Below, piece after piece: positions 2,141-58,400 of a stretch of 64,000 bases of DNA; the stretch's first letter is position 1, and every line of letters begins with the position of its first letter. The position numbers and the translations under genes are program-made. The stretch is taken from contig OX597824.1 of NCBI GenBank assembly GCA_951406725.2, forward strand, positions 62,868,001-62,932,000, read 5' to 3'. This stretch comes from Octopus vulgaris (lineage: Eukaryota). The notes beneath the pieces are model-generated. The model made no database searches, was not told the DNA's origin, and saw only the letters and a list, made by a program, of their open reading frames with translations.

Positions 2141-3413
2141 GCTCTCTCTGTGCGTGCGTGTATATGCATGTGTGCATGTGTGTGTGTGTGTGTGTGTATA
2201 TATTTATGTATATGTATACCTTTTTAGCTTATACAAAATGTAGCTAATCAGGCTGCTCATGATTAACTACTGTTTAATACACTAAATTTAATATTTAAGT
2301 TTTACAGCGACGCATCTAATAATGTAGACATATCTATAGCAAAATCATTATATGCGAAATGGAGAATTTTACCGAAATCATACGGAAATCAACACAACGG
2401 ATATTAAATTAGAAGTAGTGGAGCCAGATGATATGCTTAAATAATAAACTAATGTAAGGAAACATTTTGAAATTTGCAATACATTTTACTCATTGTTAAA
2501 GCAATACAACTTATAGGAAATATAATAAAAATTATATAGATAAAACATTTTTGAAAACATTTATCTGCAATATTAAGAAATGAATTCATGAGAGACTGAC
2601 AGATGAATATATATTCAATAAATATAAATTTTGTTCTTGCTTTTGATACTAAATGTACATTAAAATAAATATTAATTGTACATATGTAGTAATATGTGCT
2701 TCAGGCAACTTCCAATTTGTTAAGTTAAATTTAACACTCCATCAACATCCGAAGCAACGTTACTTCTGCGCCATGCATTTCATACTAAATGCAACCTTAT
2801 CACAAAATCAAAAGTTTAATTCCAAAAATCGTATATACTGAATAACTTTTCGTCGGTGCTTTGTAGTGTTTTGCATGATCCTGCTTTTCAGAAACATAGG
2901 TTAGTATTATTAGGGTTATATTTTATATTTTTTTCTTTTTTATTGGTGTTATATTAATTCCTTTTATATTCATTACAAAATAGGTTTTTGAATCATAAGA
3001 TGCAAATTGTGTATTTCAGTATTATTCTCATTGTAGAGCACTATAACATGGTTATAGAGCGGCGTGTTTATCGATGTAAACATTGGCAGAAAAAATACCA
3101 TTTGTTCATATAAGTGATATATACGCTTATATATAATTTGAACACTGATTTTCTTTTTACATTTCACTTCCACTAGATTTATCTTTTTCCAAGCCTTTAA
3201 GCTTTTATTTTAATTCACATACCGTTCTGTATTTCTCCTTTATTAGTCTTCTGCTTATTTCTTTCCTTTACCACTTCTCTTTCTAAAGACAACATTTGAC
3301 GTTACATATTCTATCGTTGTTTAAAAAAACAAACATAATAGCCTTTCGTTCATCATTGTACACATCCATCACATTCTGTTAAAATGCCTTATTGATGGGT
3401 TTGGTTTCTTTCA

Positions 3414-3498
3414 TTCCCTGATGAGAAGGATACATTGTTTTACACCATTTTATTCTTTTGGAATAATACCAATGTTGACTTCGAAACATATGTCGGAA
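3414..3498 (+). ncRNA. type I hammerhead ribozyme motif, intact core, long stem II
   Basis: TTCC-CTGATGA-GAAG...CTTC-GAAA-C-ATAT-G-TC-GGAA; stem I TTCC/GGAA, stem II GAAG/CTTC extended by ACATTG/CAATGT, palindromic stem III ACATATGT, GUC triplet at 3492-3494. Confidence 0.8.
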
Positions 3499-4268
3499 GT
3501 AAAAGAATTTGAATAACTCCATTTATTTATTTATATATATTATACAAAATATTTCACATTAACCCGAGTTTCTACCGTTACAAACGATATTACTTCCTTA
3601 TTACTTGAGTGATTTTGTACTGCCCTGATAACTGTTTATCTATTTTTCCCATGTTAATTATAAACAAGGGAAAATACACACATCCATTTATATATATATA
3701 TATATGTGTATGTGTGTGTGTGTGTGTTAGTATGTATGTATATATATGCATATATTTTATATATATATATATAAAATTGTATGCATATATTAGTACAGGA
3801 TGTCACCAACTGTGTAAACATCAAGACGTTCTAAGGGCCGGGCGCCTTCTATCTCTCTCTTCTACCTTTTCTCTTTTCAAAGAAAATATTTTTCCCAAAG
3901 TTCACAATCTTCATCTCGTTCTGGTCTAACGGCCCTCCATGTTTTTTTTTCATTATGCTTTCTTGTATGTCTCTACTGTCCTGTTTTGTTCCCAATTTGA
4001 CCCTCCACGAATCCAAAATTTTATTTTGGAATTTATAGGAGCAATGTCTTCCACCACTCATATTGTAGTTAAATGCTCGAAATGAGAAGTAGATAGGATG
4101 CCGACAACTAATGAAGGGACTGTCTTTGTGCTACTTGTCCTGCTTTCCCTTTTTTGTCTCGCTGTTTGTGTATTTACCTCGTTTGTTTATGTACTTCATG
4201 TTGTTTACACAGTTGGTGACGTCCTATAGCCATACATGCATATATATGCATACATATATATATATATG

Positions 4269-4721: not shown

Positions 4722-5900
4722 ACATGGAGCTTCTGATAAAGATCAATGTAGTAGATCGAACATCCTATGAAGATGACGAATATTATTTTCGTAATTCTTT
4801 CGTAGGCACCGACTGGCATTGGGAAGCTGAAACGGCCGTAAGAATTGTTGTCACAGAAATGTTATGTCATGTTTTGTATTACAAAATCATCTACAGTTGA
4901 TTAAATATTACTTAACATGTATTACATTAATCTAAAAGTTAGATTGTTCATATCAATAAATTTAATTATATTGACCCTTGCAGCCATACTAGATCCACCA
5001 ACAAATTACACTTTCAACCCAGCAAAATAAACCCGAGTTTACCAATATCTCATGTGAAATCAACTACAGTAGTGTCCAAATACAGACCTATACAATCTAT
5101 AGTGTGGAAAGGTAATACTGAGTTCAATAAAATAAGATAAATTCTACTGGGGGTAATGTTGTTCCTATGTGGGTAGGACTATTAGGATCTATTTTAAGTG
5201 GAGGTAGACTAATATATTGGTAGGGAATTAAGTCCAGATTACAGCAAATGCGAACAAGCGTATCCATAGTATAATAGGTACAGGAAAATAAAATTTAATT
5301 AAAACAAAATAAATAAATAAATTTAAAACTAAAAATTAAAACTTTGAATTAGTTTTTTGGGGTCATAACATTGTGGTTGAATAATGGTCCTCTGTGTTCT
5401 TAATTAAGTTCGTGATTGACGTATCTGGCATTTGTAAAAGGGGTAATTTTGTTATATTAAGGAGGAATGGTTTAATTTGTATTAAATGTAGGTAGTTGTT
5501 TTGGGTGGAGGTGGAATCTAAATTCAGAATTGTGTTTAATATTTTTAAGAATCGAGTTTAATCTTTTTCTTAAGGGTAGGTATATACTTATCTAGAATTG
5601 CTTTACTGAGCTTACCTAAATCTTACTTATTGGGGCATATTAATCTGACCTGTAGATAATTTTCTAATGTAAAACATGACATAACATTTCTGTGACATAA
5701 CAATTATTACGGCCATTTCGGATTCCAATGCCAGTCGGTGGCTACGAAAGAATTACGAAAATAATATTCGTCATCGTCATAGGATATTCGCTCTAGCACA
5801 TGGAGCTTCATCAGAGTGAATACAAATGCATCAAATAAAATCAACAAAGGGAAAAGGCTATAGGAAGGAAAATGGCCTCGAGAAGAAGCCAGGAGGCTCA
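4722..5900. mobile_element. PLE-like remnant bounded by inverted terminal-repeat copies with hammerhead-like motifs
   Basis: 4733-4908 is the reverse complement of 5637-5814; each has CTGAT(G/A)A...GAAA(C/T)GGCCGTA; the spacer has weak PLE-like peptides on the minus strand (PFYKC...EDHY). Confidence 0.6.
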
Positions 5901-7197: not shown

Positions 7198-7341
7198 TCA
7201 AGCCAGATGCATACACTTTGTATTTCTGTGTAGAGAATATAACAGCCAATTCTCTCTTAAATGGTATTCAAGCCAGATGCATACACTTTGTATTTCTGTG
7301 TAGAGAATATAACAGCCAATTCTCTCTTAAATGGTATTCAA
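7198..7341. repeat. perfect 70-bp tandem duplication
   Basis: TCAAGCCAGATG...AAATGGTAT starts at 7198 and 7268. Confidence 0.95.
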
Positions 7342-17499: not shown

Positions 17500-18715
17500 C
17501 AACACTCCTACATCTTTCTCTGATTTTGCTTAAATGCATTTACAGATATTTACAGTAGACACGTAAATGATCCCAGCTTAAATTCACAAACACATTCCCA
17601 TGGCTAGCTTCAATAATACCAACTCTCCATATCTTGAAGAGTCCGATTGAACGAGCGGAAGAGCACAATAAAATTATCCAAAGCTCTGACTGCCTCCTAC
17701 TACTTAATTTGCAGTGTCTGTTTACCACTTCAAATACGCTATTCATCTCTGATACTTTCGTAAACTTCCACTTTACCTCTCTCCATTGATCCCCTCATCC
17801 ACTCTCTCACCATCTCCACTTTCTTTAAACCCACGGGCTCCCACCTCTACCTCAACTTTTCCTCCTCCCATCCCTCTCACACCAAATTGGTCATCCCCTA
17901 CTCCTAGTTCCTCCGCTTCCGACGCCTATGCAGCCGGGACCAGAATTTAACACTCAGACCCAATATCTGGCCCTCTTGTTCATGAGTCGTGGACACCCCT
18001 GTCCAAACCGCCCTTACTCGCGCCCGTGAATTCGATCGCACTACCACTCTCACCCCTTCCCTACACCGATCCCCAACTACATTCCTTTCCGACTCCTTTC
18101 TAAACTCCACCCTACCCCTCTACCTACCCTTCTACCTACCCCTCTACTCTATCCCTCCACCCTACTCCTTCTTCGGACCTTCCGTCTCCCCAGCTAGATT
18201 CCATGAACCTCTCTATTTCCCCAACCCACAATTGCCCTCCTTCAAACGAGCCCGTAACCTACGCGACCTACTAGTCCTCTACTCCTTTCTCCCATACATT
18301 CCAACACACCCTGAATCCTTCTTTTGCTCCAGACGCCGTTGCCACATTTGCCTTTTAATCACCAACTCCCTCACTGGATCCAAACAACACATCTACATTA
18401 GGAACTATTCCTACATTTCTTCAAGCCTCATTTATTGCATCAGGTTCAATCTTTGCAATAAAACTTAGGTTGGTCAGAAGGGCCGCCGGCTAGCCGACCT
18501 GTTTACCGAACGCCTACAAGATGTTTGTCTACGTAAGAACAATTCCGTCGTCTGTTATTTTCACATGGTCGAATAATCTATCTCAGATCTCACCGTCTTC
18601 GGCTAGCAGTACACCATGAATCAACCAACACGTTGTAATCAAATAGAACAGCGTTACATTTTCGCTCTACGTACTCAAACTCCTTTTGGACTCAACACAA
18701 TTCCCGCGTCTCAGT
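17500..18715 (+). mobile_element. Penelope-like retroelement: RT C-terminus plus GIY-YIG endonuclease (pseudogenised)
   Basis: KPTGSHLYLNFSSSHPSHTKLVIPYS*FLRFRRLCS; FKRARNLRDLLV; CSRRRCHIC; SSLIYCI...VGQKGRRLADLF; EQRYIFALRTQTPFGLN. Confidence 0.88.
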
Positions 18716-24447: not shown

Positions 24448-25542
24448 TAGTTTGATTTTTATAGCGTGCTTACACTTCACTACCGAGCGCAGCTCTGTGT
24501 GCCTTGGGTATGTGCTGTGATTTGTTGTGATGCTCTGATGGTTATTGTATGGAAAGTGTTCTGCGTAGGATGTGTGCAGTGCCTAGTAGTGCAATTTTCT
24601 ATATGTTATATGTGTTTGTAAGTCCTGATGTTTTTGTTATGTATTTGTCTGAATATTTCTTTCGTGCCTAATGCGCCTACTATGATAGGAATTGTTTCTG
24701 TTTTTAGATTACCGCTATTTCCAGGTCTTTGTATTTTGAAAGTGTCTCCATTTCTTTTAGAGACACGTTGTCATCTACCGGTATTGATACATCAATTAGA
24801 AAGCATTTTTTTCCTTCATGATCTCTGACAACTATATCTGGTCTGTTGGCCTTAATTTCTCTATCTGTGTGTATCGGCATATCCCAGAGTATGGTTGCTT
24901 TCTCGTTTTCTGTGACCTTTTCTGGTCTGTGCCTATACCATCTTTTTTCTGTTGTTATTCCATAATGTTGGCATAGCTTCCAGTGTATGTAGGTCCCAAC
25001 TCTGTCGTGTCTGTGAATATATTCCTTCTTAGCCAGGACTGAGAAGCCAAAGATAATATGATTTATTGTTTCTTGTCCATCTCCACATATTCTGCAGTTA
25101 TTTGTTATATTTCTTTTCATTACATGTTTTTGGTAATTTCTGGTGGGGAGGTTTTGGTCTTGTGCTGAAATTAAAAATCCCTCTGTCTCTGCTTTGAGTC
25201 CTGAGCTTCTCAACCATTGCTGGGATTTTTCTTTGTCTATTTCTTTTGCGTTTAGTTTAGTCCAGTATTTACCATGAAGGGGCTTATCTTGCCATCGTTT
25301 TATCATGGTTCGTTGCTGTTCTATTTTTAGTTTGGATTTCATTTGTTTTATAGTTTTTGTTGTTTCTTCATCTTCTTCTTCTTCTTCTTCTTCTTCTTCT
25401 TCTTCTTCTTCTTCTTCTTCTTCTTCTTCTTCTTCTTCTTTATATTTATTAGGTGGTATGATTTCTTGTTTGTATTTGTCAGCTTCTTTAAATACTGAGA
25501 ACAGTTTTTTGTTTTGCTCGTGTTTTGCCGCTATTTGTATCA

Positions 25543-25543
<1 letters not shown>
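24444..25543 (-). mobile_element. 5'-truncated R4/Dong-type LINE (zinc knuckle plus restriction-like endonuclease)
   Basis: open frame 25543-24704: KPLHGKY, AQDQ, CRICGDGQETINHI, RHD, ANRPDIVV...IDVSIP...KYKDL; then IPIIVGALG and GTAHILRRTL after frameshifts, 3' UTR and (TAA)n. Confidence 0.93.
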
Positions 25544-29649: not shown

Positions 29650-30171
29650 ATATATATATATATCCATATTATTCACATTTTATTCACATTATCCATTACC
29701 CACTAACGCAACCTATGGCCCCCTGGCCTAGGTTTATACCAATATTACCAACAAAATAATATTCGGTCTACTGAGATGATTTCAAAATGCAACAGCTACC
29801 TAACGGTGTATCTTTTCTATCCTTCGGATGAGATTTTTCTTAATACAATGATATAAATTAATCTAATTTAATCTTTGGGCAAAATGGAAACAGCTGTAAG
29901 AGAATATGTTAGATTTTTATGTAGTTAATAAATTACATTAATGCTACATCTCTAGTTTATAAATTTTCTTTTCAATGTTTAGAAACCAAGATTTATAGTT
30001 AGACCTTTAATCTTATGAATATTACTATTCAAGAAAATACTGGACAATGAACCAGTAATGCATTGGATATTATTATCCCTTAATGAGGCTGTTTTAACTT
30101 CTAATTAAATATATATATAATAACCGTATACATCGGTTGTAGCCTATCTTCATCTAAATACACACATATAT

Positions 30172-37222: not shown

Positions 37223-37890
37223 TATTAGTTCATCCCATAGATAATGCCGTTTTTATGGTCTTATTTTTCAAAATTAAGATAAAAAAAACGTTCTTTTTTA
37301 ATCTAAAATATACTCTACTTTATTTTCTACAATGCTCTGCCATCTATCTCGTAGACTTACAAGGCCCCTATTCCAAAATTCAGTTGGTGCTGACGAAAAA
37401 TCCTCCTCCACTACTGTTCTGACCTCGTCACCAGTTACCAGATACATTCGTGAGACGTGACAGAAAAAAAAAACACACATTCACTATCTGAGCGCGATCA
37501 GACCTGGAAAGTTTGTGAGGAAAACATTGACCCAATTTGCTGACTTTTCCGATGACATGCAGGTATCGATGAATGGTTGAATGACCAAATCCAAGCATCT
37601 GTCTTAGTTCCTCAACAGTTATGATAAGATTTTATGCCGCTAGGTTTTGCAGGATGTCCTCGTCGAGTTCTACAGATCTTCCAAGAAGAGGTTCATCTTC
37701 TAGGCTGTAGTTTCCAGCTCGGAATTTCTAGAAACCACCGTTCATACCGACTTATACTCATTGTCCAATTTCCATACACCTCGCACTTTCCCATGCCTTG
37801 TTGCCTTTATTGAACTCATGAAGCAAAATATGGCGGATATGTTCCTCACTCAATTCCATTATAGCTTTGAAAAAATTGTGAAAACCGAAG
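37223..37890 (-). mobile_element. internally deleted mariner transposon
   Basis: N-terminus MELSEEHIRHILLHEFNKG...KFRAGNYSLEDEP.LGRS; C-terminus FWNRGLVSLRDRWQSIVENKVEY; TIR-like end TATTAGTTCATCCCATAGATAATGCCG. Confidence 0.88.
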
Positions 37891-37899
37891 GCAGTTTTC

Positions 37900-39300
37900 C
37901 TTTGCCTGGTCGCTGTACCAAAACAGGTTGTTTGATGGACAAGGTTGAACTGCATGAAGACAGATACATTCTTCTTTGGTAGAGCTCTCATTGCTTTATT
38001 CATGTTTACCTTGGAATTGAAATTGAGAGTGGAGAGGGAAGTGCAGTCGTCGAGTGAGGTTAATGAAAGGTGAGTGAAAGTTGCAAAAATGGCAAATGAT
38101 GACCTATGAGCCGGACAGAAGGAATTGGGGAGGACACTTGCTCCTGTGGTTTCAGGGATATCTCGGACAGTGGGGTTTCTCGACTATCCTTCCAGGCCTT
38201 CTTGTATCAGGAGAGCAACGTCTCTATCAACTTCGCCACCACTTGTTTTTAAACCTTTGTTTCCTTTGCATATGTCCCTTCTTGTTCGGTGAAACCGTGT
38301 ATGCATACTTTCTTTCTGTTCTTTTTTTATTCATTTTATTATTTGTAAACCCCCACACTTTATCTCAGTATTTGTGGCAAATAAATGTGGCGTAAACCGA
38401 GGAGAGGCGTTTGGCACCTCGTGTACCGTCAAGCGCTCACAGCCCTCAGTCAGGCCTGCAATGCAGTCGGTGGTAGTTCCTCTCTAGCGTTCTATAAACG
38501 GCTAGTGGAGGGAAAGTGCGACGACGTTCTCGAGGAAACTCTGGGTGTCGATGAAGATCGACTAACCGGTCTGTTTCGGAGAACTTTCGGGCAGGGGCTT
38601 ATAGATAACTTTCAGAAATCCCTTGTCTAGCAATGCTACCGAGGGTCGCTATCTGTACGCAATAAACTTTACAGGCACGGAAGTGCCATCAGCCGGGTCT
38701 GCCCGAGTTGAGCCCAAAACGATGAAACCGGTCTGCACGCCCTAGTCCAGTGACTGAGTGTTGCTGACCTGTGGGTTTAAGTTGAACACCTACTGTCTCG
38801 TGTAGGTTGGATCCGGCTATCAACTGAATCCATTGCGAAGATTGCTCCGCTGCCCTCTTTTAGCCGGATGGTGCAGGCAATTTGTACTTGTCGAGTGGCT
38901 GTAGTGAAAGAGGTATTATGGTGGGCATGTTTCAAAGGGCTTAAGACAGACACTTTCATTTTGGCGACCTCATCACCCTTTTCAAGTTTCACTTGAAAAG
39001 GAAGTTGAAGTTAGGGAAGTGTTGCCTTGTAGCAAGTTTGTTGAAAGGTGGGTGAATGGCCAGTGTGAAAGGGCCAATTCTTAGCATGCACCTGTTGATC
39101 AGGTAGCCGTGGCTTTTGTGGGTTTTCTCCGAAGACCTTAAAGCACCTCCCCTATAGGGAGTTTAAATTTGTTTAATTTTTTATTGTTACATATATTGTT
39201 TACACGCTGTAAAACCCATTGTATGTCCTGGCTTTGTCTTTTATGTTGTTGCATGTCATTTAATGATGTTTTATGTGAGCCCTTTTGGCTAATAAAATAA
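37900..39300 (+). mobile_element. Tx1/L1-group LINE 3' remnant
   Basis: FQKSLV*QCYRGSLSVRNKLYRHG...CPS*...ETGLHALVQ (zf-RVT-like knuckle); ends near AATAAA. Confidence 0.7.
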
Positions 39301-41430: not shown

Positions 41431-41570
41431 AAGTCACTCTATTAATTCGACACACAAGGTTGACGACAGTTTAGAGCAGTAGACCAGGCGGCTACAGACA
41501 AAAGTCTGTTTATCATGTAGGCAGTCATCGTAATTGTAATAATGCCTTGTTGTTGAGAGAGGCTCTCTTT

Positions 41571-41652
41571 CTTTCCTGATGAGAAGATTGCATCTTACAC
41601 CGTTTATTCCTTTGGAATAAAACCATGTTGTCTTCGAAATATATGTCGAAAG
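41571..41652 (+). ncRNA. type I hammerhead ribozyme motif, intact core (paralog of 3414-3498)
   Basis: CTTTC-CTGATGA-GAAGA...TCTTC-GAAA-T-ATAT-G-TC-GAAAG; stem I CTTTC/GAAAG, stem II GAAGA/TCTTC, GUC at 41645-41647. Confidence 0.8.
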
Positions 41653-41702
41653 TAAAATAATTTTATTAATATCTTCGTTCAACTCGATTTATTTACCTAT
41701 TC

Positions 41703-41756
<54 letters not shown>

Positions 41757-41773
41757 ATATATATGTATGTATG

Positions 41774-41807
<34 letters not shown>

Positions 41808-42602
41808 TGTATGTATGTATGTATGTATGCATATTTATATATACATATAATCCATAAAAACATTGCTGACATAGGATATCAAACAACACATAAGACATTG
41901 TTGCAAGACCATTCTACGGATGGCCTAATTGTATTTTTGTGCTCCCGCACATTGATTTGTGAGCATATTATTAAATACATTACAAAAATATTACAAGAAT
42001 TTTATTGTAACTGTTATTTCTAAAGTAGAAATATTTACTAATCTCGGTTTTATGTACTTTCTTTGATATGATTATTTGAAAGATTTAGGAAATTAAATCA
42101 AATAGCTTATATTCTGATCCTTCACATTTCCGATCAACATTCTAAGTCACGAACTCTCTATAATTAGTAAACAGATTTCTGTAATGGAAAATACGAAAGA
42201 AGCGAATATAGAAACTAAACACAACAGAAAATATTGAACATTTTACAAGATTTCTTCTGAATACAAATATTAGTTTTTAATACCTTATTGTGATTGAAAA
42301 TTTTGAGAATAGCCAAAATTTGAGAATCGCAAAGTATTGCAGCCACGTGATATTTAAGAAAAAAATTAATCTAATTTTTAGCAAACTTATTCGTCCTACT
42401 GGTATTTAGCAAAATATAATCACATTCGGGAATTATTCAAAGTCTTCATCTACCTAATGAAAAGCTTATGACAGTGTGCATATAAGAGATGATTAAACAT
42501 AGTTACGTGTTCATAGTTATGTGGTCAAAAAACCACATTACTTCAAAGTAAATCACATCATTTTTGTCATTTATTTCAAGAAATATGCAGGAGAAAGGTA
42601 AT

Positions 42603-46865: not shown

Positions 46866-48324
46866 ATATATATACATACATATATATATATCCATACGTA
46901 TATCTATATTTATATATGTATGAACATATGTGTGTGTGTGTCTCCTGTTAGTTGTTTTTATTGTTTTTGCACAGTAACACAAAGGAATATACTTTAGTCG
47001 CCAGAGTAATTATATCGAACATGCAAGAACGAGTACTCCCTAACAATTTAAGATAACATTATTTCACAAAATATAATTAGCCATATTGTTTCTCTTTCAT
47101 AAATTCAATTTTCGTGTAATTTTCGATAATTGATTTCCATTTAACGATGCAGACGGTATACGCTGTGCGGTGTATTTCATGCTTTTCAGTAGTATCTGAA
47201 CGAGATTAGTTTTGGCGACACCCACCGTGCGATGTAAATAAACTACAGTTAAATGATGATATGGAACTTTAATAGATGGTTCACTTACATTGATGACCTT
47301 TACAACATAATATAATCTTACTTGTATCCTTATAAATTATTGGAGTTCTCAAGAATCTAAGAAAATATACAGTAAACAGATGATGTCTACTTTTTTGTAT
47401 TTTCTCTGACATTTTCAGAAAATGGCAGATTGTCACACATTTCGATTCCATTTAGTCATAAAATGATTCTATAACTCTAATCTGCTAAGCCGAGCAAGAT
47501 ATTTTAAAGTGATCTCTAAGTCGAAATCATTGTAACCTATTCATCCTTTCAACGGTAACTCAAGTAATCATTCGTTGTGTTGGCAACATATTTGCCACAA
47601 AATCTATATCTTCCATTACCTTCAAGAAATCTAATCTTTATAGTCTGAAACTCTAATCTTTAAAGCCGCGATAATTATTATTCGCAAATATCATAGTTAT
47701 GAATGGAAAATTCTAATTTTAGATCAACGATGATTGTGATATAATAATCTGATAATTACTGACTGCAGTGACACCCCATAAAGATGTGTCGTAAGGCTAT
47801 GTATGTTTCGTATTGGCTATCACGTTTTCCTCTTCACATTTGTATTTGCTTTGTCTTCTAAATACAATTTTTCAAAAGAAAATGTTGATACGAATCGTTG
47901 TTTTTACTAGTAGCAAGTTGTATTTTAAATGTTCTAATCTATTCGCTGATTAAAATGAATGTTTTAGTAGTTTACAGAGTAAAATAAATACAAACGATTG
48001 ACTAACAATCTCGTGACAAAGTGACTCGCATTTAAACACTGCGGAAAGAGAAACGTGATCACTGACGCTAAGAATATTTCTGATTGCATTATTCATTAAT
48101 CATAAAATTATTGTATTTCCGTTTTTTCAATGTTGTAAATCAGGTTTGACATACTGAATTACAGAATTTTTCACCAAGATTTTGTTGTTCATTTCGATTC
48201 TTCTCATCGTCACTACTATTAATTTTCTCACCTCAAACATTATTGCTAACTACTTCTTGCTGTCATTCACGTTTCCACATCGGTTCTGTTTAAATGTTTA
48301 TAACAACAATTTTCTTTGGTTGTT

Positions 48325-48498
<174 letters not shown>

Positions 48499-49195
48499 AG
48501 GGTGAAGATGATGTTGAAATCCATTATGAATGCCAAAAATTTGATTGCCGCAATGAATATCTGGATAGTTGCGGTGGTAAGATACAGTGCCTCCATGCTC
48601 AAATGGACTAAGGAGGAAATATCAAAACTGGATAGAAGTACAGGAAAGTTGACGACTATGCATGGGGCGCTACAACATAAAGCAAACTTAAACAGGTTGT
48701 ATATAAAAAGAAAGAATGGTGGCAGTGGACTGATTAGTATAGACCATTCTATAAGGAGTGAAAGGGAGAACGCTACCCGAGTATTTATAAATAGTGATGA
48801 AGACCTGCTACAATATGCCGCGAAAGATATGGGTGTTAATGCAGATGAAATGATGGCAAGGGAGAGTTTAACCAAAGAACTAAGGAGAAGAGAAAAGAAG
48901 ACCTGCTTGAAGTAAGAATGCATGGGCAGTTTGAAAGGAATACACAAAACGTTAAGGATAATACAGCATCGTGGGCATGTCTTGAGCGAAGTGATTTGAA
49001 GCGTACCACCGAAAGCCTGATCATTGCTGCACAAGACCAGGCTCTCGCTACCAATTCAGTGGAGTATAACATCTATAAAATGTCTGACTCCTATAAATGC
49101 AGCCTCTGTGGAAAGAGTAGAAAATGTGACCCACTTAGTAAGTGGAATGTGAGAGCTTTGCACGAAAAGATTACAAACGGCGCCACCATAATTAA
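48499..49195 (+). mobile_element. R4/Dong-type LINE fragment (post-RT region to zinc knuckle)
   Basis: NAKNLIAAMNIW.VAVVRYSA...RLYIKRKNGGSGL; MHGQF...AAQDQAL...CSLCGK...KRRHHN. Confidence 0.9.
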
Positions 49196-49201
49196 GGAAA
49201 G

Positions 49202-49665
49202 TAATGGGTTGGCAACTAATTTCCCGCCGTTGTTTTTTTTAATTTTGGAATTTATTGTGTTTTTAAATTTTCGAATCTATTTTTCCGAGAATTCTATTTT
49301 TGAATCATTTTAGAATCTACTTTGTTTTTTGTTGGTTTTTTTTCTAGTTAATTTTCGTTTACTTTCAGATCATTAAAATGGAATTTCAAGTTAAGAAAAA
49401 CGAGCATTTTCGACACCTCCTTTTTGCTTTTAATCAAGGTTCTAATGACGAAAGGCTGCTCACAACATTTGTGCTGTGTATGGAGAGGGTGCCATAGCTG
49501 AAAGAACCACTCGTGATTGGTATGCTAAGTTCAAACATGGAAATTTTGACCTCAAAGACGCACCTCGTTCTGGCCGTCCAGTTGAGTTTGATAAAGAGCG
49601 ATTAAACCATTGAGACGTATGGCTGGGAAGTGCTAACACACCTGCCGTACTCTCCAGATTTGAAA
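49202..49665 (+). mobile_element. internally deleted mariner remnant
   Basis: TIR-like TAATGGGTTGGCAACTAA; MEFQVKKNEHFRHLL...ICAVYGEGAIAERTTRDWYAKFKHGNFDLKDAPRSGRP; GWEVLTHLPYSPDL. Confidence 0.9.
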
Positions 49666-49669
49666 TAAT

Positions 49670-51432
49670 GAGAGATGAAATATCAATATTAAATGAACTA
49701 ATCAGCGGAAACTACCTATAATCCAGAAAAGTAAGGAAGGTGAAGAGAAAATATTGATTCTCATCAAGGGAAGTGCTGCTTTCATCAAAAGAGGCACTGC
49801 AACAAAATTTCCAACTGAAAGGTAAGAGATATACGAATATTTGAGAATAAAGACAAGATTTACAAGCAAAATAAATTGTTAACATCCGATGTGAAAACAT
49901 TCTACAGAGAAATAGGGAAGAAGAAAGGAACATTTGAACAGCCTCCCATGGAGGAAGATGAAAACTTTTGGAAAGATATTTCGAGGAATGAAAAGACACA
50001 CGATGAAAATGCATACTGGATAAGAGGCATAGAAGGATCATACAAAAATTAACCAGAACGTGTATGGGAAGATATCACAATAGCAGACTTAAGGATGCCA
50101 CACAGAAATATCGGGTCCGCATGGATTGATTATAAAAAGGCATTTGACAGCATACCGTACTAATGGATCTTGAAATCGCTGGATATCTTCACAATTTCTC
50201 CTGTGATTTCAAACTTACCGAAGCGCATGCCAGTGTGGAATACGAAACTCCAATTAAACCACTCTAATGGAGTACTGACCGCAAACGATATTTTCTCTAA
50301 TTTTTATTTTCACAGGTCTAATACCCCTTACAAATGAACTTAACAGGAAGAATGTGGTTATAAAATTGGCGGCAAGAGAATAAGTTATCTATTTTATATT
50401 GGTGACTTAAAACTCTATGGCAAAGAAGATAATGAGCTTGAAGGGTTACTACGTACTGTGAAAGCATTCAGTGATGACACCGGGATGCAATTTGGTCTTG
50501 ATAAATGCACCGAGGCCACGTTTCAGAAAGGGAAATTGAAGACCTCACAGTCAGTGGTATAAGATGTTAACACGGTTATAAAAAAACTTGAGTAAGAAAA
50601 AACTTACAATTACCTCGGAAGACACGAGGTCTCTGGCATCTGGCATGTAAGCATGAAATAGAAGATAAGGATGGACTGTTACAGGAGAGATCGAGCAGTG
50701 TTAAAATCCGAGTTAAATGCACGTAATATGGTGCCAGCTATAAATTCCTTAGCAGTTCTGGTTGTTATTTACTGTTTCAATGTGTTGCACTGGAATATGA
50801 GCGAAACATAGAAGATTCACAGGAAAATCCATAAGCTACCGAGTTGCAATAAGATGCATCACCCAAAGCATACACATATCATTTTTACCTTCCCAGAGCT
50901 CAAGGAGATTGAGGTTTGATCAAATTTGAAATCTCTTAAAAATCACTACAATTGAACTGGCAAAATATCGTGAAAGATCTCACGACTGGCTGCTAAAACT
51001 CGTTGAAAATCACGAGAGACGGAAGAAGTTACATTCTGTTATGAAGGAGAGCAAAAAAATTACAAGGTTGAACAGCATGATGAAAGCGCGAGACTTATGG
51101 TATTAAAGAAGATGAAATCAATGGCAAAGCATAAAGCGTTTGAACAATTTGTTGATAGTGGGACGAAAAACCTCTGCATGGAAAATATATAGCCCGTAGC
51201 AAACAAGCTGATGTAGAACATAAGTACATTCACCAGTGGGTACGGAGCTCAGGGCTTAAAGCAGAGAGCAAAGGTTTTATATTAGCTGCTCAAGATCAAA
51301 GCTTATTTACTAGGAACAACCAAGCCAATGTGATAAAAAATGGTGTAGAACCAAAGTACCGATACTGCAACAATGAGATTGAAACAGTGGACTACGTAAT
51401 CTCTGGGTGTAAGATTTTAGCATCAGCAGAGA
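49670..51432 (+). mobile_element. second R4/Dong-type LINE remnant with RT domain
   Basis: WIDYKKAFDSIP, LFYIGDLKLY (decayed YMDD), MQFGLDKC, YNYLG, KPLHGKY, GLKAESKGFILAAQDQ, YRYC...ETVDYVISGC; many stops. Confidence 0.88.
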
Positions 51433-53922
51433 ATTTTGCTCAGTTCAGTGACTTAAGAGAAGATACTTACTCGATATGCTTCGCACTGGCATTCAACTCA
51501 AAACAGGTTTTGCAAAGCAGATATCTTAAACATATTTCATTATGATTCCTGTAAGGGACACAACTCTTTAATCTTTTCAGTCATATTAGTCAACCTCGTA
51601 AAACGGGTTATACACATATAGCTGAAGTAATTAAGAGAAACGTCGATGTTCAATATTAAAGACACGTAGGTGTGAAAACATATTTTAAGAATAAATTACA
51701 GAGAAATTTGTCAATGGCCTCATCTGCACGAAAGCATTATACTGAAGCCGTATTTAATGCAGAGAGCATTAGATAAAGCTTATCAGAAATATCTAATCGC
51801 AGATGGTCCTATGCTCTTTTCAACTGCTAATCCAATATATAGCAATTCTTCAATGATTACTTCGATATACTGACGGATATCATAGGTGGAAGAATTCTAG
51901 TGATTATGAACTGTGTACGTTATTCTACTCCGTATTTTGCTAAAATATTGAAAACACTACTAATCATTGGCTGATATTGTTTTTTTTCTTCAAAATATTT
52001 CTAATTAGTTTTTAATGCTAATTGCACTTTATATGGTTGCGTCTTTTAGTAGAAATATATCATTTATATTGTTACACGGTGGGCTTATAAAACCATTTGG
52101 TACGCAATTTTATACGACTAGATATAGATATACAGGGTCTTTGATAATGATTCCCACTTAGAAATGGAACATAATTCAGGTTATTCATTCTTTTTCTCGT
52201 CGTAGAAAAATAAATAAAAGTGTTATATGTTTGCAATTTCCATTTGAGTTATTTATAAATTGAGACAACTGAAGTAATATATTGTATTTTTTATTGTAGA
52301 TATTTACTACAAGTATTTATCCTATACTACATAAAGCTATCAAAACCAAATGTCTAGCGTGATTTATGAATGAAGTCAATTGTTTTTATAAGGCTCCTTT
52401 TATGGGTAAATTAAATATTAATACTATAACTTAAATAGTGTGAAAAACAAAAATATTCTAAAAATAAACAGAATCACTAGACAGAATCATTGCGTCAACA
52501 AATAAATATCATAGATTTGTTTAATTATTGTGTATAACACAATTTTCGTCTTTGGGTAGCAACTGCAATTTCCAAGTTGCTTACCCCCAATGAGTAGGAA
52601 AACGGTTAATATGTCCTTTTGTTACATTTATTCATTAATACATTTAACTTTGCTTTTGCTACATATATTCAAACTACAAAGAATCCCTTTCAACCCATAG
52701 CTATGATGCTCCCCAACTACTCCTGCTCATGGTCAGAGATGCGCATATCGTCAGTCATTAAGTGACATGCTCAATTGGTTAAGATCAAGCAACTGACAAT
52801 CAAATCTGTAGTATTAAGCAAAGTATTTGCTTTAGCGATATTTCTACATCTCAGAATTGAATGGAAAATAGGGTCAGTTTGAAAACATTGATGTCTTGGT
52901 CAGAAAAGCGAAGCTTGAAGAGAATAATAGTTCTTTCCTTTGAGTGCTGGATAGAAGCAAACAGGAAATAAAACATAGTGACCGAAGACAACAAAAAAAT
53001 AATAAAATAATAAAATAAATTAATAAAATAAATGAAATAATAAAAAAATAATATCGTTACAAAGTGATATCTTTGAATTGTCTATGCTATTGATTACTTC
53101 CGCTGACATAAACCACCATACGGGGGAAGAGGTGTAGAGTATTTTATAGATCCCTGTATATAACAGGTACTTAATATTATCACTATTGTACCCGCTGCGT
53201 CGGGTAAAGTTAAAGATGAAGTTTATAGCATTTGAAACGAGAAAAGAAAGTCCTGAATCTCATTACCTCGATATATTTTGCTCCATTGCCAAATGACTGC
53301 TCCAAATTCTGATCCCTACTCTATTGTACACAATTAAACTTTAGAAGAAAACCCGTAACAATTATATACAGACTATATAAGATGCCTATAGTGACTTTGC
53401 TTTATTATGAAACTAATTATATTTATCACTGACTTTGAATGTTTGCAGACAAGCTGTAAACGCTAAACAACTGAGGTTGTTTTGTTTTGTTTTCTTGTTT
53501 ATGTTGATGATCTATTCTGTCTCCCATGAGATGATATGTAAGGTAGTAGCGACATCAGTCAAGTGAAATTGTTTCACTTGGAACTTACAAAAAGATACTT
53601 TCAATTTCTTCCAATTTTTCAAACTTTACCGAGATTATTTTCAAAACATTTAGTTCTGTCGTGGTTGTTGCATGCTGATAAACTAAATCCCATCGATTTG
53701 GTGAAAGAATTTAAGAACTTACCAGCTGTTAAAATGTGTAACTTTGGCCAATGAAGAAGATGTACGTTGCCAACATACCGTAGGTTGGGACTGCCTGTTG
53801 GCGTGGAACACAAAACGAAAGGTTTACGTATTCGTAGATCTGCTAGAAATAGCACTCAAATCTCCTTTCAACTACATTATGGCGTCTAAAAATCAGAAAA
53901 TATTACATATAATCGCAATCAG

Positions 53923-56059: not shown

Positions 56060-58400
56060 TTATAGACACAGGATGACCACCATTGCTACCAAGCCGACCA
56101 GTATTATACATCTACTGATAAATATCAGATGGCTTCTAGAGAACAACAGCAGACACAAAATTGCGTACCTCAGGAACCTTTCCACATGTACATTGCACTT
56201 ACAAAAACATCCGCAGACATAAACGATGCAGAGATATACGTCCCAATATGTGCTGTATTTCACACTCAGAGAAGTGAAACAAGTCACGTTGGAATTGCTC
56301 TGTACATCTGTGAAGTTGCCAAACGACTAAACCTGTTGTCTTATTCAGACTTGGTCTCTGACACACTCACAATATGTTTAAAACAACTTAATTTGGTAAT
56401 ATGCACATTATATCGTTCACACGATGCTTCAAATCTTGAAGGTAAATTTGAGGAAAGCCTTTCAACTTTAAAAGAAATACTAACAAAACTATATGAATGC
56501 GCTAATGTACTTCTAATGGATGACTTGAAGCCCCACCATCAGATGGCCAGAAGGCAAATTAATCTTAAGAATGACACTGAAAGAGTGCAATGAAACAGAT
56601 GCTCTGTTTGATCCCAATCAGGAAGCCATTTTCACCACTCAGAAAAATAGCATCTTAGACCAACAATTTGGGTTATATCAACAATGTCAAGATATCACAG
56701 AAAATTTACGCAGAACATAAGATGATTGAACTGACGATGTATAGTCCAAAGATAATGAAATATATATTCCACATAGATGGTCTGCAAAGACTATCCTGTC
56801 TGAAATTTTGCAAGGCTGATGGAAAGGCAATTGAAAAACAGATACTCCATAAGAAATGGGTAAAACGTTTCTCTACACATGACATTGATATGAAACTCAA
56901 AGAATTCGTCACTAGAATGCGAGATATAGGCGTTAAATCGTCCTCAGAAAACAGAGCGACTACATACAAGACATCGTTCCGCGAGACAGGAGAGTCTATA
57001 TGAAACGGAGAATAGAAATCTTCAATCGCTTAAATAAGCAACTTATTGGCGGCTACAAATCCCACCTCAAAGAGTTGCTCTTGGAGATCGAAACTAAACT
57101 AATACCCTCCCATGAAAAAGAAACAGAAGAACGAGAAGGAAGGGCGGTGGAACGTATAACAATGAATCTTAAAACCTTCTGTAGGTTAGTTCAAGAATTT
57201 GTCTCAGGGTCCTACAAGATAGGGCTACTGTTTGAAGAAGAAGGCTCATTGACTGAAGTCCCTAGGAGGATAAGAGAAATACTAAATAAACAATTCCAAA
57301 GATTTTACTGTTCTCTGCTGGGAAATATACAATTAAGCAAACCTGCTAAGTTCTTCAACGCCAAAAATATACATAGGAAAGAAGCAGCCATCGATTACAG
57401 GAACATAAAGGGCGAAAACGTAATATTAGCCACTGATGTGATAAAGCGAATATCGGCAACAGGCCCGGATGGATGTCCGGTTCTTTTGTTAAAGAAGTGT
57501 AAGAAATGTCTCGCTAAACAACTGGAAAAAAAAATTTCAGTTTCATTGCATATGGTAAACGTGCTAAAATGTTAAAAGAAATTACAATATGCCCTGTCCA
57601 CTAAGGAGGAAGCAGATCAGACGCTAAAAATTTAAGGTCTATTACTCTGATCTAAAATGTTAGCAAGGTCATGGAACTTATTGTCAAAAGAAGGTTGATC
57701 ACATTCCTGGAAGAAGGGCTTCCGCTTAGGGAGGAGTAGCTTAACACATCTACTACAGTATCATGACTAGGTCTCATGTGCATATTACCGAAATGGCAAT
57801 ACATTGCGCACGAGTGGCTGACCGGATTCTGAGATCTTTCAGAAACAGTTTAAAGGAGACCATGCTACTCCTATGAACTTTCATTTCAGTTGTCTGGATT
57901 ATTGCTCCTAACTGTGGTCACCAAAGAGCCTCGAACGGTCAGCGAAACACGAGGCAATACAGCACCCGTCCACGAAGTTTTATTCGATGCTGCGGAAGAT
58001 CTACAGGGAGAGGCTAATGGAACTGAATCTCTAATCCCTTGGAAAGAGACTCGAAAGAAATGCAGTGATATAAACATAGAAGTTCCCGGAAGGTCTTGCT
58101 TCCAATAATGGGATCGGAAGTTATATTAACCACCGAAATGGAGGGCACTGCATAGTACCAATGGTAACACGTTTTCTACGTGTAGAGTAAGAACCCAGTA
58201 CTGTATTGGTTAGGTTACAAGCGTCCACAAGTGCTCAGCATTCTGCCAAACTACTTCAGGTATTTGTGAGGTGTAATTATGGTGGTTTTCAAAAAAGTCC
58301 GAACGCACTCTTTAACTGAAATTCGAGATGAATCCATATCGCACCAGTAGGCACAGAGAAGAGCAGGTGTAGCCAACTCGTTACTTCTCCTGAAAGAACA
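56060..58400 (+). mobile_element. CR1/L2-group LINE ORF2 remnant (APE endonuclease, partial RT, C-terminus)
   Basis: VGIALYI, LVICTLYRS, LLMDDL; SATGPDGCPVLLLKKC; ICPVH*GGSRSDAKN; LTHLLQYHD; RPQVLSILPNYFR; internal deletions. Confidence 0.85.

Follow-up and report, generated by a model that had tools for sequence, protein, structure and literature searches.

Long-armed type I hammerhead motifs in the terminal repeats of Penelope-like retrotransposon remnants of Octopus vulgaris

Two hammerhead motifs lie in the window (the whole stretch of 64,000 nucleotides of Octopus vulgaris DNA analysed here), and it is highly probable that both are type I hammerheads, each sitting in a terminal repeat of a Penelope-like element (PLE) whose copies here are dead and truncated at the 5' end, and whose active forms would cut their RNA as a dimer. 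Hammerheads have been known in PLE terminal repeats since 2014 (PMC4209133, PMC6765202, PMC8557442, PMC11167929), including those of the Hydra clade and of a family from octopus in which stem II is short (PMC8557442), and their role was given as unclear by Craig et al. 2021 (PMC8557442). The association with a PLE is ordinary; less ordinary are the very long arm of these motifs and a downstream segment predicted to cover the start codon. The lineage is good test material for the role of these hammerheads, with no fewer than 15,000 copies of the motif, numerous subfamilies displaying natural covariation, young intact open reading frames (ORFs) of 899 and 778 amino acids, and a conserved leader helix predicted over the AUG.

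The two motifs

When the window is scanned for CTGANGA with a paired stem and GAAA after it, two motifs and no more are retrieved; their cores begin at 3418 and 41576, and both display the CUGANGA core, GAAA and NUH in type I order. The initial annotation had placed them at 41571 and 3414 with three letter differences between them, and the sequence bears out these coordinates as well as all three differences. The motif of subfamily A (41571..41652, forward strand) is built around CTGATGA at 41576-41582 and GAAA at 41636-41639, with stem I made of CTTTC (41571-41575) and GAAAG (41648-41652), and C17 at 41647; its position in the motif predicts a cut between 41647 and 41648. Between the two core segments, fold and covariation delineate an extended domain II of 53 nt (41583..41635), predicted to form a 6-bp stem, a mismatch, a 4-bp stem, an internal loop and an apical hairpin, with double changes at four of its ten stem pairs across subfamilies. 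The 8-nt stem III palindrome, which would serve intermolecular pairing, occupies 41639..41646 and is only near-palindromic in this copy, where a private C-to-T change sits at 41640. Further down, 41680..41689 is a box that is complementary to the region around the start codon in full-length elements, with a private C-to-G change at 41686. The motif of subfamily B (3414..3498, forward strand) has its core at 3418-3424, a domain II of 58 nt and C17 at 3494, with a predicted cut between 3494 and 3495. It is followed on the same strand by its own start-codon-complementary box (3514..3523) and by the 5' strand of a second leader helix (3627..3638), the partner of which, found immediately ahead of the AUG in full-length copies, is missing from this one.

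The long arm appears to hide these motifs from Rfam: a scan of the window gave no match at the gathering threshold for either of them, likely because of the long domain II, a limit of the model that is not a defining feature of the class. Our own model R1 gives the 41571 motif 102 bits, its alignment including that very copy, and a model derived from 14 family motifs recovers both motifs together with a weak decayed one at 29811-29912 (forward strand; E 0.011), which belongs to another family and combines a CAGCTG palindrome with a broken core. Folding of the single strand is weak (z -1.83 for the 41571 copy, 0.14 for the 3414 copy), and the pair probability of stem I is 0.03 in the 41571 copy versus 0.68 in a typical A copy. 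Across the genome (2.8 Gb, 227 contigs), a tight pattern of the motif has 3,942 exact matches versus none in the reversed control, and a broader one 15,083 matches versus 19.

Remnants of a Penelope-like element

The 41571 motif is part of a fragment of subfamily A (41505..41703, forward strand), recognized through genomic copies that are 92-96% identical. This 5'-truncated piece comprises only the 3' UTR, or pseudo-LTR (pLTR), and ends 56 nt past the predicted cut, at what is described below as the short end, where a (TA)n/(TG)n/(TATG)n microsatellite (41704..41843) makes the 3' junction. The 3414 motif belongs to a similarly truncated fragment of subfamily B (3045..3689, forward strand; 83-88% identical to its closest B copies), which opens with a broken remnant of the last endonuclease codons (3045..3107, forward strand; tblastn E 3e-5 and 6e-5 against the A and B ORF ends) and extends for about 195 nt beyond the cut, up to the long end, which (TA)n follows. 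Neither copy has a promoter context or an ORF, and both are best read as dead. No inverted partner or longer element was found beside 41505, the left flank being an older unrelated repeat: the segment 41040-41500 is dispersed in the genome, with no fewer than 39 other places about 70% identical to it. At the 5' junction of the A fragment (41495-41510) the sequence forms a 6-bp inverted repeat (ACAGAC/GTCTGT) together with the flank, perhaps the trace of a fold-back during truncation. Elsewhere in the window, 5551-5649 on the reverse strand is a short coding remnant resembling the reverse transcriptase (RT) region of the same PLE lineage (tblastn E 2e-6).

Longer A and B copies extend upstream into coding sequence for the RT thumb, YRDD, a linker and the endonuclease. 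Full-length relatives are organized as pLTR-ORF-pLTR, 2.9-3.7 kb long with one hammerhead per repeat and intact ORFs of 899-908 or 778 amino acids. Direct pLTRs or tandem units with the hammerhead are found in L251, L253, L255 and L256, where the span from one hammerhead to the next is 3,657, 3,625, 2,863 and 3,683 nt, respectively. One young subfamily (L251-L253, L257) has many open frames of 899 amino acids across contigs, with a tandem pair 99.9% identical in L253, which suggests recent activity. In L255, which carries a young, intact 778-residue ORF, both repeats (967-1041 and 3830-3904) have the variant core CCGAAGA (U4C). A model of this 778-residue protein, built with an alignment of 86 sequences, reaches a pLDDT of 86.5, and its top five Foldseek matches in the PDB are all telomerase TERT (E 4e-10 to 1.5e-8), as expected for the RT of a PLE. 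The C-terminal domain has an IYxC...Y(I/V)G signature aligned across homologues, with a Pfam GIY-YIG match at E 0.022, below the cut-off. Intact relatives appear to encode a telomerase-like RT and a C-terminal domain of the GIY-YIG type, Pfam support for the latter being weak. Other searches were little informative: in Pfam, RVT_1 had no match and neither the RT nor the full ORFs were named, while a nine-sequence profile run against PDB sequences returned a retron RT (E 9e-4) and otherwise nothing useful. The closest named protein relative comes from Argonauta hians.

Going by its sequence, the element is filed here as a PLE of a Hydra-related lineage. With the EN+ PLEs of the Hydra clade, Hydra-1_Obim among them, it shares a single ORF with RT then endonuclease, DKT, YRDD and a C-terminal CxxC...CxH, as well as (TA)n targets, a hammerhead in the 3' repeat and an inverted truncated arm (PMC8557442). 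The printed protein of Hydra-1_Obim has RT motifs close to those found here when compared by eye, and the CCHH motif of the endonuclease was likewise judged by eye, against the Hydra alignment printed in the same article (PMC8557442). DKT replaces DKG in the ORFs of the lineage, as it does in 100 of 120 database homologues. By contrast, the CxCx5C linker of the Hydra clade (PMC8557442), present in 106 of the 120 homologues, is absent from all ten lineage ORFs scanned and from L251-L257, the single match to the regular expression being in the RT core; a cysteine-poor, Asn/Ser-rich stretch of low complexity, 74-159 residues long, stands in its place. Units are generally below 3 kb in that clade and up to 3.6-3.7 kb here, domain II measures some 12-24 nt in its motif table and 47-60 nt here, and a tail of 30-40 bp there compares with about 155 nt here (PMC8557442). 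It is because the linker is replaced and units reach 3.7 kb that the element does not qualify as a strict Hydra member. Fragments of other Hydra-type families, in which the linker is recognisable, adjoin lineage copies in L032:469-1227 and L120:665-1072, with CxCx5C intact in L120 and one cysteine changed in L032, which indicates that nested PLE insertions occur.

The motifs themselves resemble the minimal dimeric hammerheads of metazoan PLEs, with their type I topology, a proximal stem I of 4-5 bp, a helix II longer than usual, G10.1-C11.1, a short palindromic stem III, a location in the pLTR and mostly dispersed truncated copies (PMC4209133, PMC6765202; see also Lunse et al., as cited in PMC6765202). 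They differ in that helix II has 6-8 bp there, while here it is an arm of three segments, interrupted by an internal loop and capped by a hairpin (PMC4209133, PMC6765202).

A structure conserved between subfamilies, in copies that decay

Between subfamilies the secondary structure of the motif has been preserved, whereas single copies decay in a neutral manner. Copies used to evaluate decay were gathered by the UTR upstream of the motif, a choice whereby the quality of the motif did not steer selection; the whole motif is spanned by 26 of 29 A copies and 25 of 29 B copies. (At first look there had been 1,747 candidates for the 41571 stretch and 2,236 for the 3414 stretch, of which 40 each were scored.) Counting rare substitutions only, with gaps excluded, private changes hit the core as often as the flanks, in A (9/311 versus 120/5067, p 0.56) as in B (7/302 versus 170/5071, p 0.41). 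A cruder count that included gaps gave a lower core rate in B (p 0.006), an effect that is gone when substitutions only are considered. Yet the A and B majority sequences are identical at 77 of 87 motif positions (89%) versus 143 of 204 in the upstream UTR (70%). The proposal that structure was selected while the family was mobile is upheld by this pair of facts, the core decaying at the rate of its flanks and the motif nevertheless being better preserved than the UTR between subfamilies. The flanks, presented as diverged, are indeed only about 70% identical between subfamilies, but they are not unrelated and belong to the same element.

Seen in this light, the differences between the two window copies do not all have the same meaning. 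The copy at 41571 departs from the majority of its subfamily at 9 of 191 positions, that at 3414 at 42 of 427, with breaks in stems I and II among them; calling them intact, as the initial annotation did, is correct for the 12 core bases, but beyond the core both carry private changes. The C-G to U-A change in stem I is a real compensatory change, fixed in the subfamilies (CTTTC and GAAAG in 21 and 22 of 26 A copies, TTTCC and GGAAG in 16 and 20 of 25 B copies), but it counts as a single event, and on its 5' side it would most simply derive from a one-base slip in a (CTTT)n run. The U-G wobble of stem III, in contrast, is no covariation but private decay: position 41640 is C in 25 of 26 A copies, and U there lowers the predicted stability of the dimer duplex from -7.0 to -3.2 kcal/mol. 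As for the C/T difference in the inner hairpin, it is present, but it again is not covariation, being for the most part a loss private to the 3414 copy (2 of 27 B copies).

Stronger support than from this pair of copies, which had been put forward as the best internal evidence, comes from other families. Among 14 close sequences, 93.5% of the cells are paired and both sides have changed in 7 of 23 pairs. Among 12 families, double changes affect 10 of 13 pairs, and the covariation score is 0.742 versus 0.217 in shuffled alignments and at most 0.203 with slid partners. Aligning many copies was the check that had been recommended, and across subfamilies and families the motif beats all 500 shuffles and every slid control, counts that are not to be read as probabilities, for the controls ignore relatedness and the structures were drawn from the same sequences. 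The positions C3, G5, A6, G8, A9, G12-A14, A15.1 and U16.1 are invariant in the 12 families, the stems of which are unrelated, and position 17 is never G. Covariation supports stems I, II and III, the third being stable only as an intermolecular duplex. Left unconstrained on the close subfamilies, RNAalifold proposes an alternative fold that disrupts the core and is not a hammerhead. Copies of subfamily C (L097, L083 and related ones) that have a second AGGAAT partner in domain II often have a disrupted first GGAAT; ATTCC thus seems to pair with different partners in different subfamilies.

Probable cleavage in pairs, and other readings

Of 165 motifs, 142 have a stem III loop that is a perfect palindrome (seven distinct sequences in all), and a further 16 pair with themselves via G-U, the search patterns having left four bases of this loop free or nearly free. 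Within a monomer the A15.1-U16.1 pair has a probability below 0.02. Varied palindromes and weak pairing in the monomer fit the dimer mechanism described for PLE hammerheads, and the sequences of the loops point to dimer cleavage. It is likely that two hammerheads pair through the 8-nt palindrome, which would act as stem III, and are cut after C17, probably slowly or with the assistance of the element's protein. The partners would be both repeats of one transcript, or two transcripts, and the seven family-specific palindromes could serve as self-recognition codes. A heterodimer of the 3414 and 41571 copies, suggested at the outset as an assay, is plausible on paper (-5.1 kcal/mol predicted), but the two are decayed and 38 kb apart.

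Might the motifs instead belong to a non-autonomous non-LTR retrozyme, in which short tandem non-coding units are excised as circular RNA? This lead, present in the initial annotation, finds some comfort in the type I hammerhead with its short palindromic stem III, in the high copy number and in a tandem hammerhead array of a different family in the same genome. That array (L190:884-3881, i.e. G000:C1:16526400-16529400) comprises five tandem 535-bp units, about 98-99% identical and each with a long-armed hammerhead, plus an inverted arm of 560 bp and TA-rich flanks, with no ORF of at least 300 amino acids; it is itself a candidate for a PLE-mobilised retrozyme. Metazoan retrozymes share with the present motifs the type I hammerhead and a kinship to PLEs, but they are tandem and non-coding where we find single or inverted fragments of a coding element (PMC7229834, 10.64898/2026.07.22.740005). 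They are made of tandem repeats of 150-450 bp (PMC7229834), whereas the A/B loci with a motif (98, that is 120 minus 11 duplicates and minus 11 without a motif within the mismatch limits) are single in 85 cases and inverted pairs in 12, with one direct repeat, and the sequence upstream of the motif codes for an RT and an endonuclease. Locus layout and coding sequence largely refute a retrozyme for subfamilies A and B, leaving it a very slim chance, and the circular RNA lead is not supported. Slimmer still is the chance that the host has co-opted the 41571 copy, with selection at present maintaining it as a ribozyme. None of its 12 core bases is damaged, to be sure, but the core is intact as well in 18 of 26 unselected A copies, as expected at such an age, and private changes make the copy weaker in stem III, in the distal part of stem I and in the anti-AUG box.

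A more serious rival, albeit an improbable one, holds that the hammerhead fold was selected as a structural platform, for protein binding or for dimerisation in a ribonucleoprotein (RNP), cutting being rare or irrelevant. It would account for 5' ends that do not pile up at the cut and for the half of leader-bearing copies that read through it. It accords with the young, intact subfamily whose core base is changed (CCGAAGA) and with PAc (Poseidon, Anolis carolinensis), where catalytic mutants had no effect on insertion and no RNA reads ended at the cut (PMC11167929). Against it stands the catalytic core, invariant in 12 families with unrelated stems, and the exclusion of G from position 17, a pattern expected if catalysis is what was selected. 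Cleavage as a dimer by active elements keeps our preference.

Insertion ends

Whatever cutting took place, the genome holds no footprint of it, as the absence of a 5'-end pile-up and the frequent read-through tell. Among 43 leader-bearing copies (60 loci less 11 that lacked a usable alignment and 6 in which no AUG could be recognised), a single one begins within 5 nt of the cut, and 21 read through it. Cleavage as a source of 5' truncation is rejected on the ground that 5' ends do not accumulate there. At the other end, the first microsatellite past the cut was met at 26-75 nt in 67 of 125 motifs and at 171-260 nt in 42, five motifs being without microsatellite and 11 having it elsewhere. Insertions have two end points, separated by about 155 nt; the short one is illustrated by the 41571 copy and the long one by the 3414 copy. 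The distance between them corresponds to the tail of PLEs. The microsatellite reached by family ends is TA/AT in 105 of 120 cases, and 8 of 15 two-strand loci clearly combine one short and one long arm, the rest being ambiguous. Reverse transcription would probably proceed for the most part from uncut RNA, with two internal starts some 50 and 205 nt past the cut, and priming by, and insertion into, (TA)n. In PAc, too, there are two internal 3' ends, an AT-rich target and uncut RNA as the main template (PMC11167929); its tail reflects two RT start sites, and its ribozyme requires protein (PMC11167929). The start sites are adjacent there, while here the two ends are about 155 nt apart within the leader, and the AUG, which is inside the hammerhead there, is about 260 nt downstream of the cut here (PMC11167929).

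A leader predicted to fold over the start codon

From the predicted cut to the AUG, full-length copies have 254-267 nt. Applied to 14 leaders with no structure supplied, RNAalifold predicts two long-range helices: in the first, a box about 34-45 nt past the cut pairs with the start-codon region, and in the second, a segment near +150 pairs with the bases just before the AUG. Overall, 95.7% of the cells are paired, with double changes in 6 of 20 pairs, five of them in the second helix; by our reading of the tree, these changes would fall on at least two branches. The first helix has one double change, the remainder being single changes tolerated as G-U, and A-to-G changes that keep G-U pairs point to the sense RNA. 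Its pair probability ranges from 0.71 to 1.0 over five copies, and 19 of 3,000 shuffled leaders contain as good a match, with the caveat that coding constraint also holds its AUG side. The leader folds with a z of -5.96 in a young intact copy and -2.01 in an older A copy. Taken together, these predictions make it quite likely that a helix of 9-11 bp holding the AUG is real. The anti-AUG box may instead be conserved as a signal for the start of reverse transcription. The literature, incompletely covered, gave no description of an AUG-covering helix or of a long arm, and the supplement of PMC8557442 may list similar arms. Four contig sets guessed to be RNA display no intron-like joint in the L251 leader; ends, strand and level are not readable in them, which makes them neutral.

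It is possible, if rather doubtful, that this helix is used as a switch for translation or for the RNP. Hammerheads in the 5' UTR of chrysoviruses are likewise of type I, upstream of an ORF and devoid of classical loop-loop contacts, but their context is viral and cap-independent translation has been shown for them, while it is a hypothesis here (PMC13725137). Cleavage in our elements would release an uncapped RNA starting with a folded leader that holds the AUG. A bolder version, which we consider unlikely, would make the long-armed hammerhead and the 260-nt leader one RNA switch, where dimer cleavage frees an uncapped, AUG-locked RNA and the fold joins both RT start sites. Were it true, start sites about 155 nt apart would be brought together for an RT dimer, explaining inverted arms of short and long kinds, and PLE hammerheads would gain a definite function, that of allotting transcripts to translation or to reverse transcription.

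Other repeats in the window

The window has recorded further mobile elements. A LINE-like remnant with zf-RVT (E 2.5e-4) lies on the reverse strand at 24704-25543, and a mariner remnant with HTH_48 (E 1.8e-6) on the same strand at 37758-38183. Apparent LINE or PLE pieces, recognized by eye only, are found on the forward strand at 17986-18468, 48304-49313, 51159-51545 and 56066-57575. Finally, a 70-bp unit is perfectly duplicated in tandem at 7198-7341.
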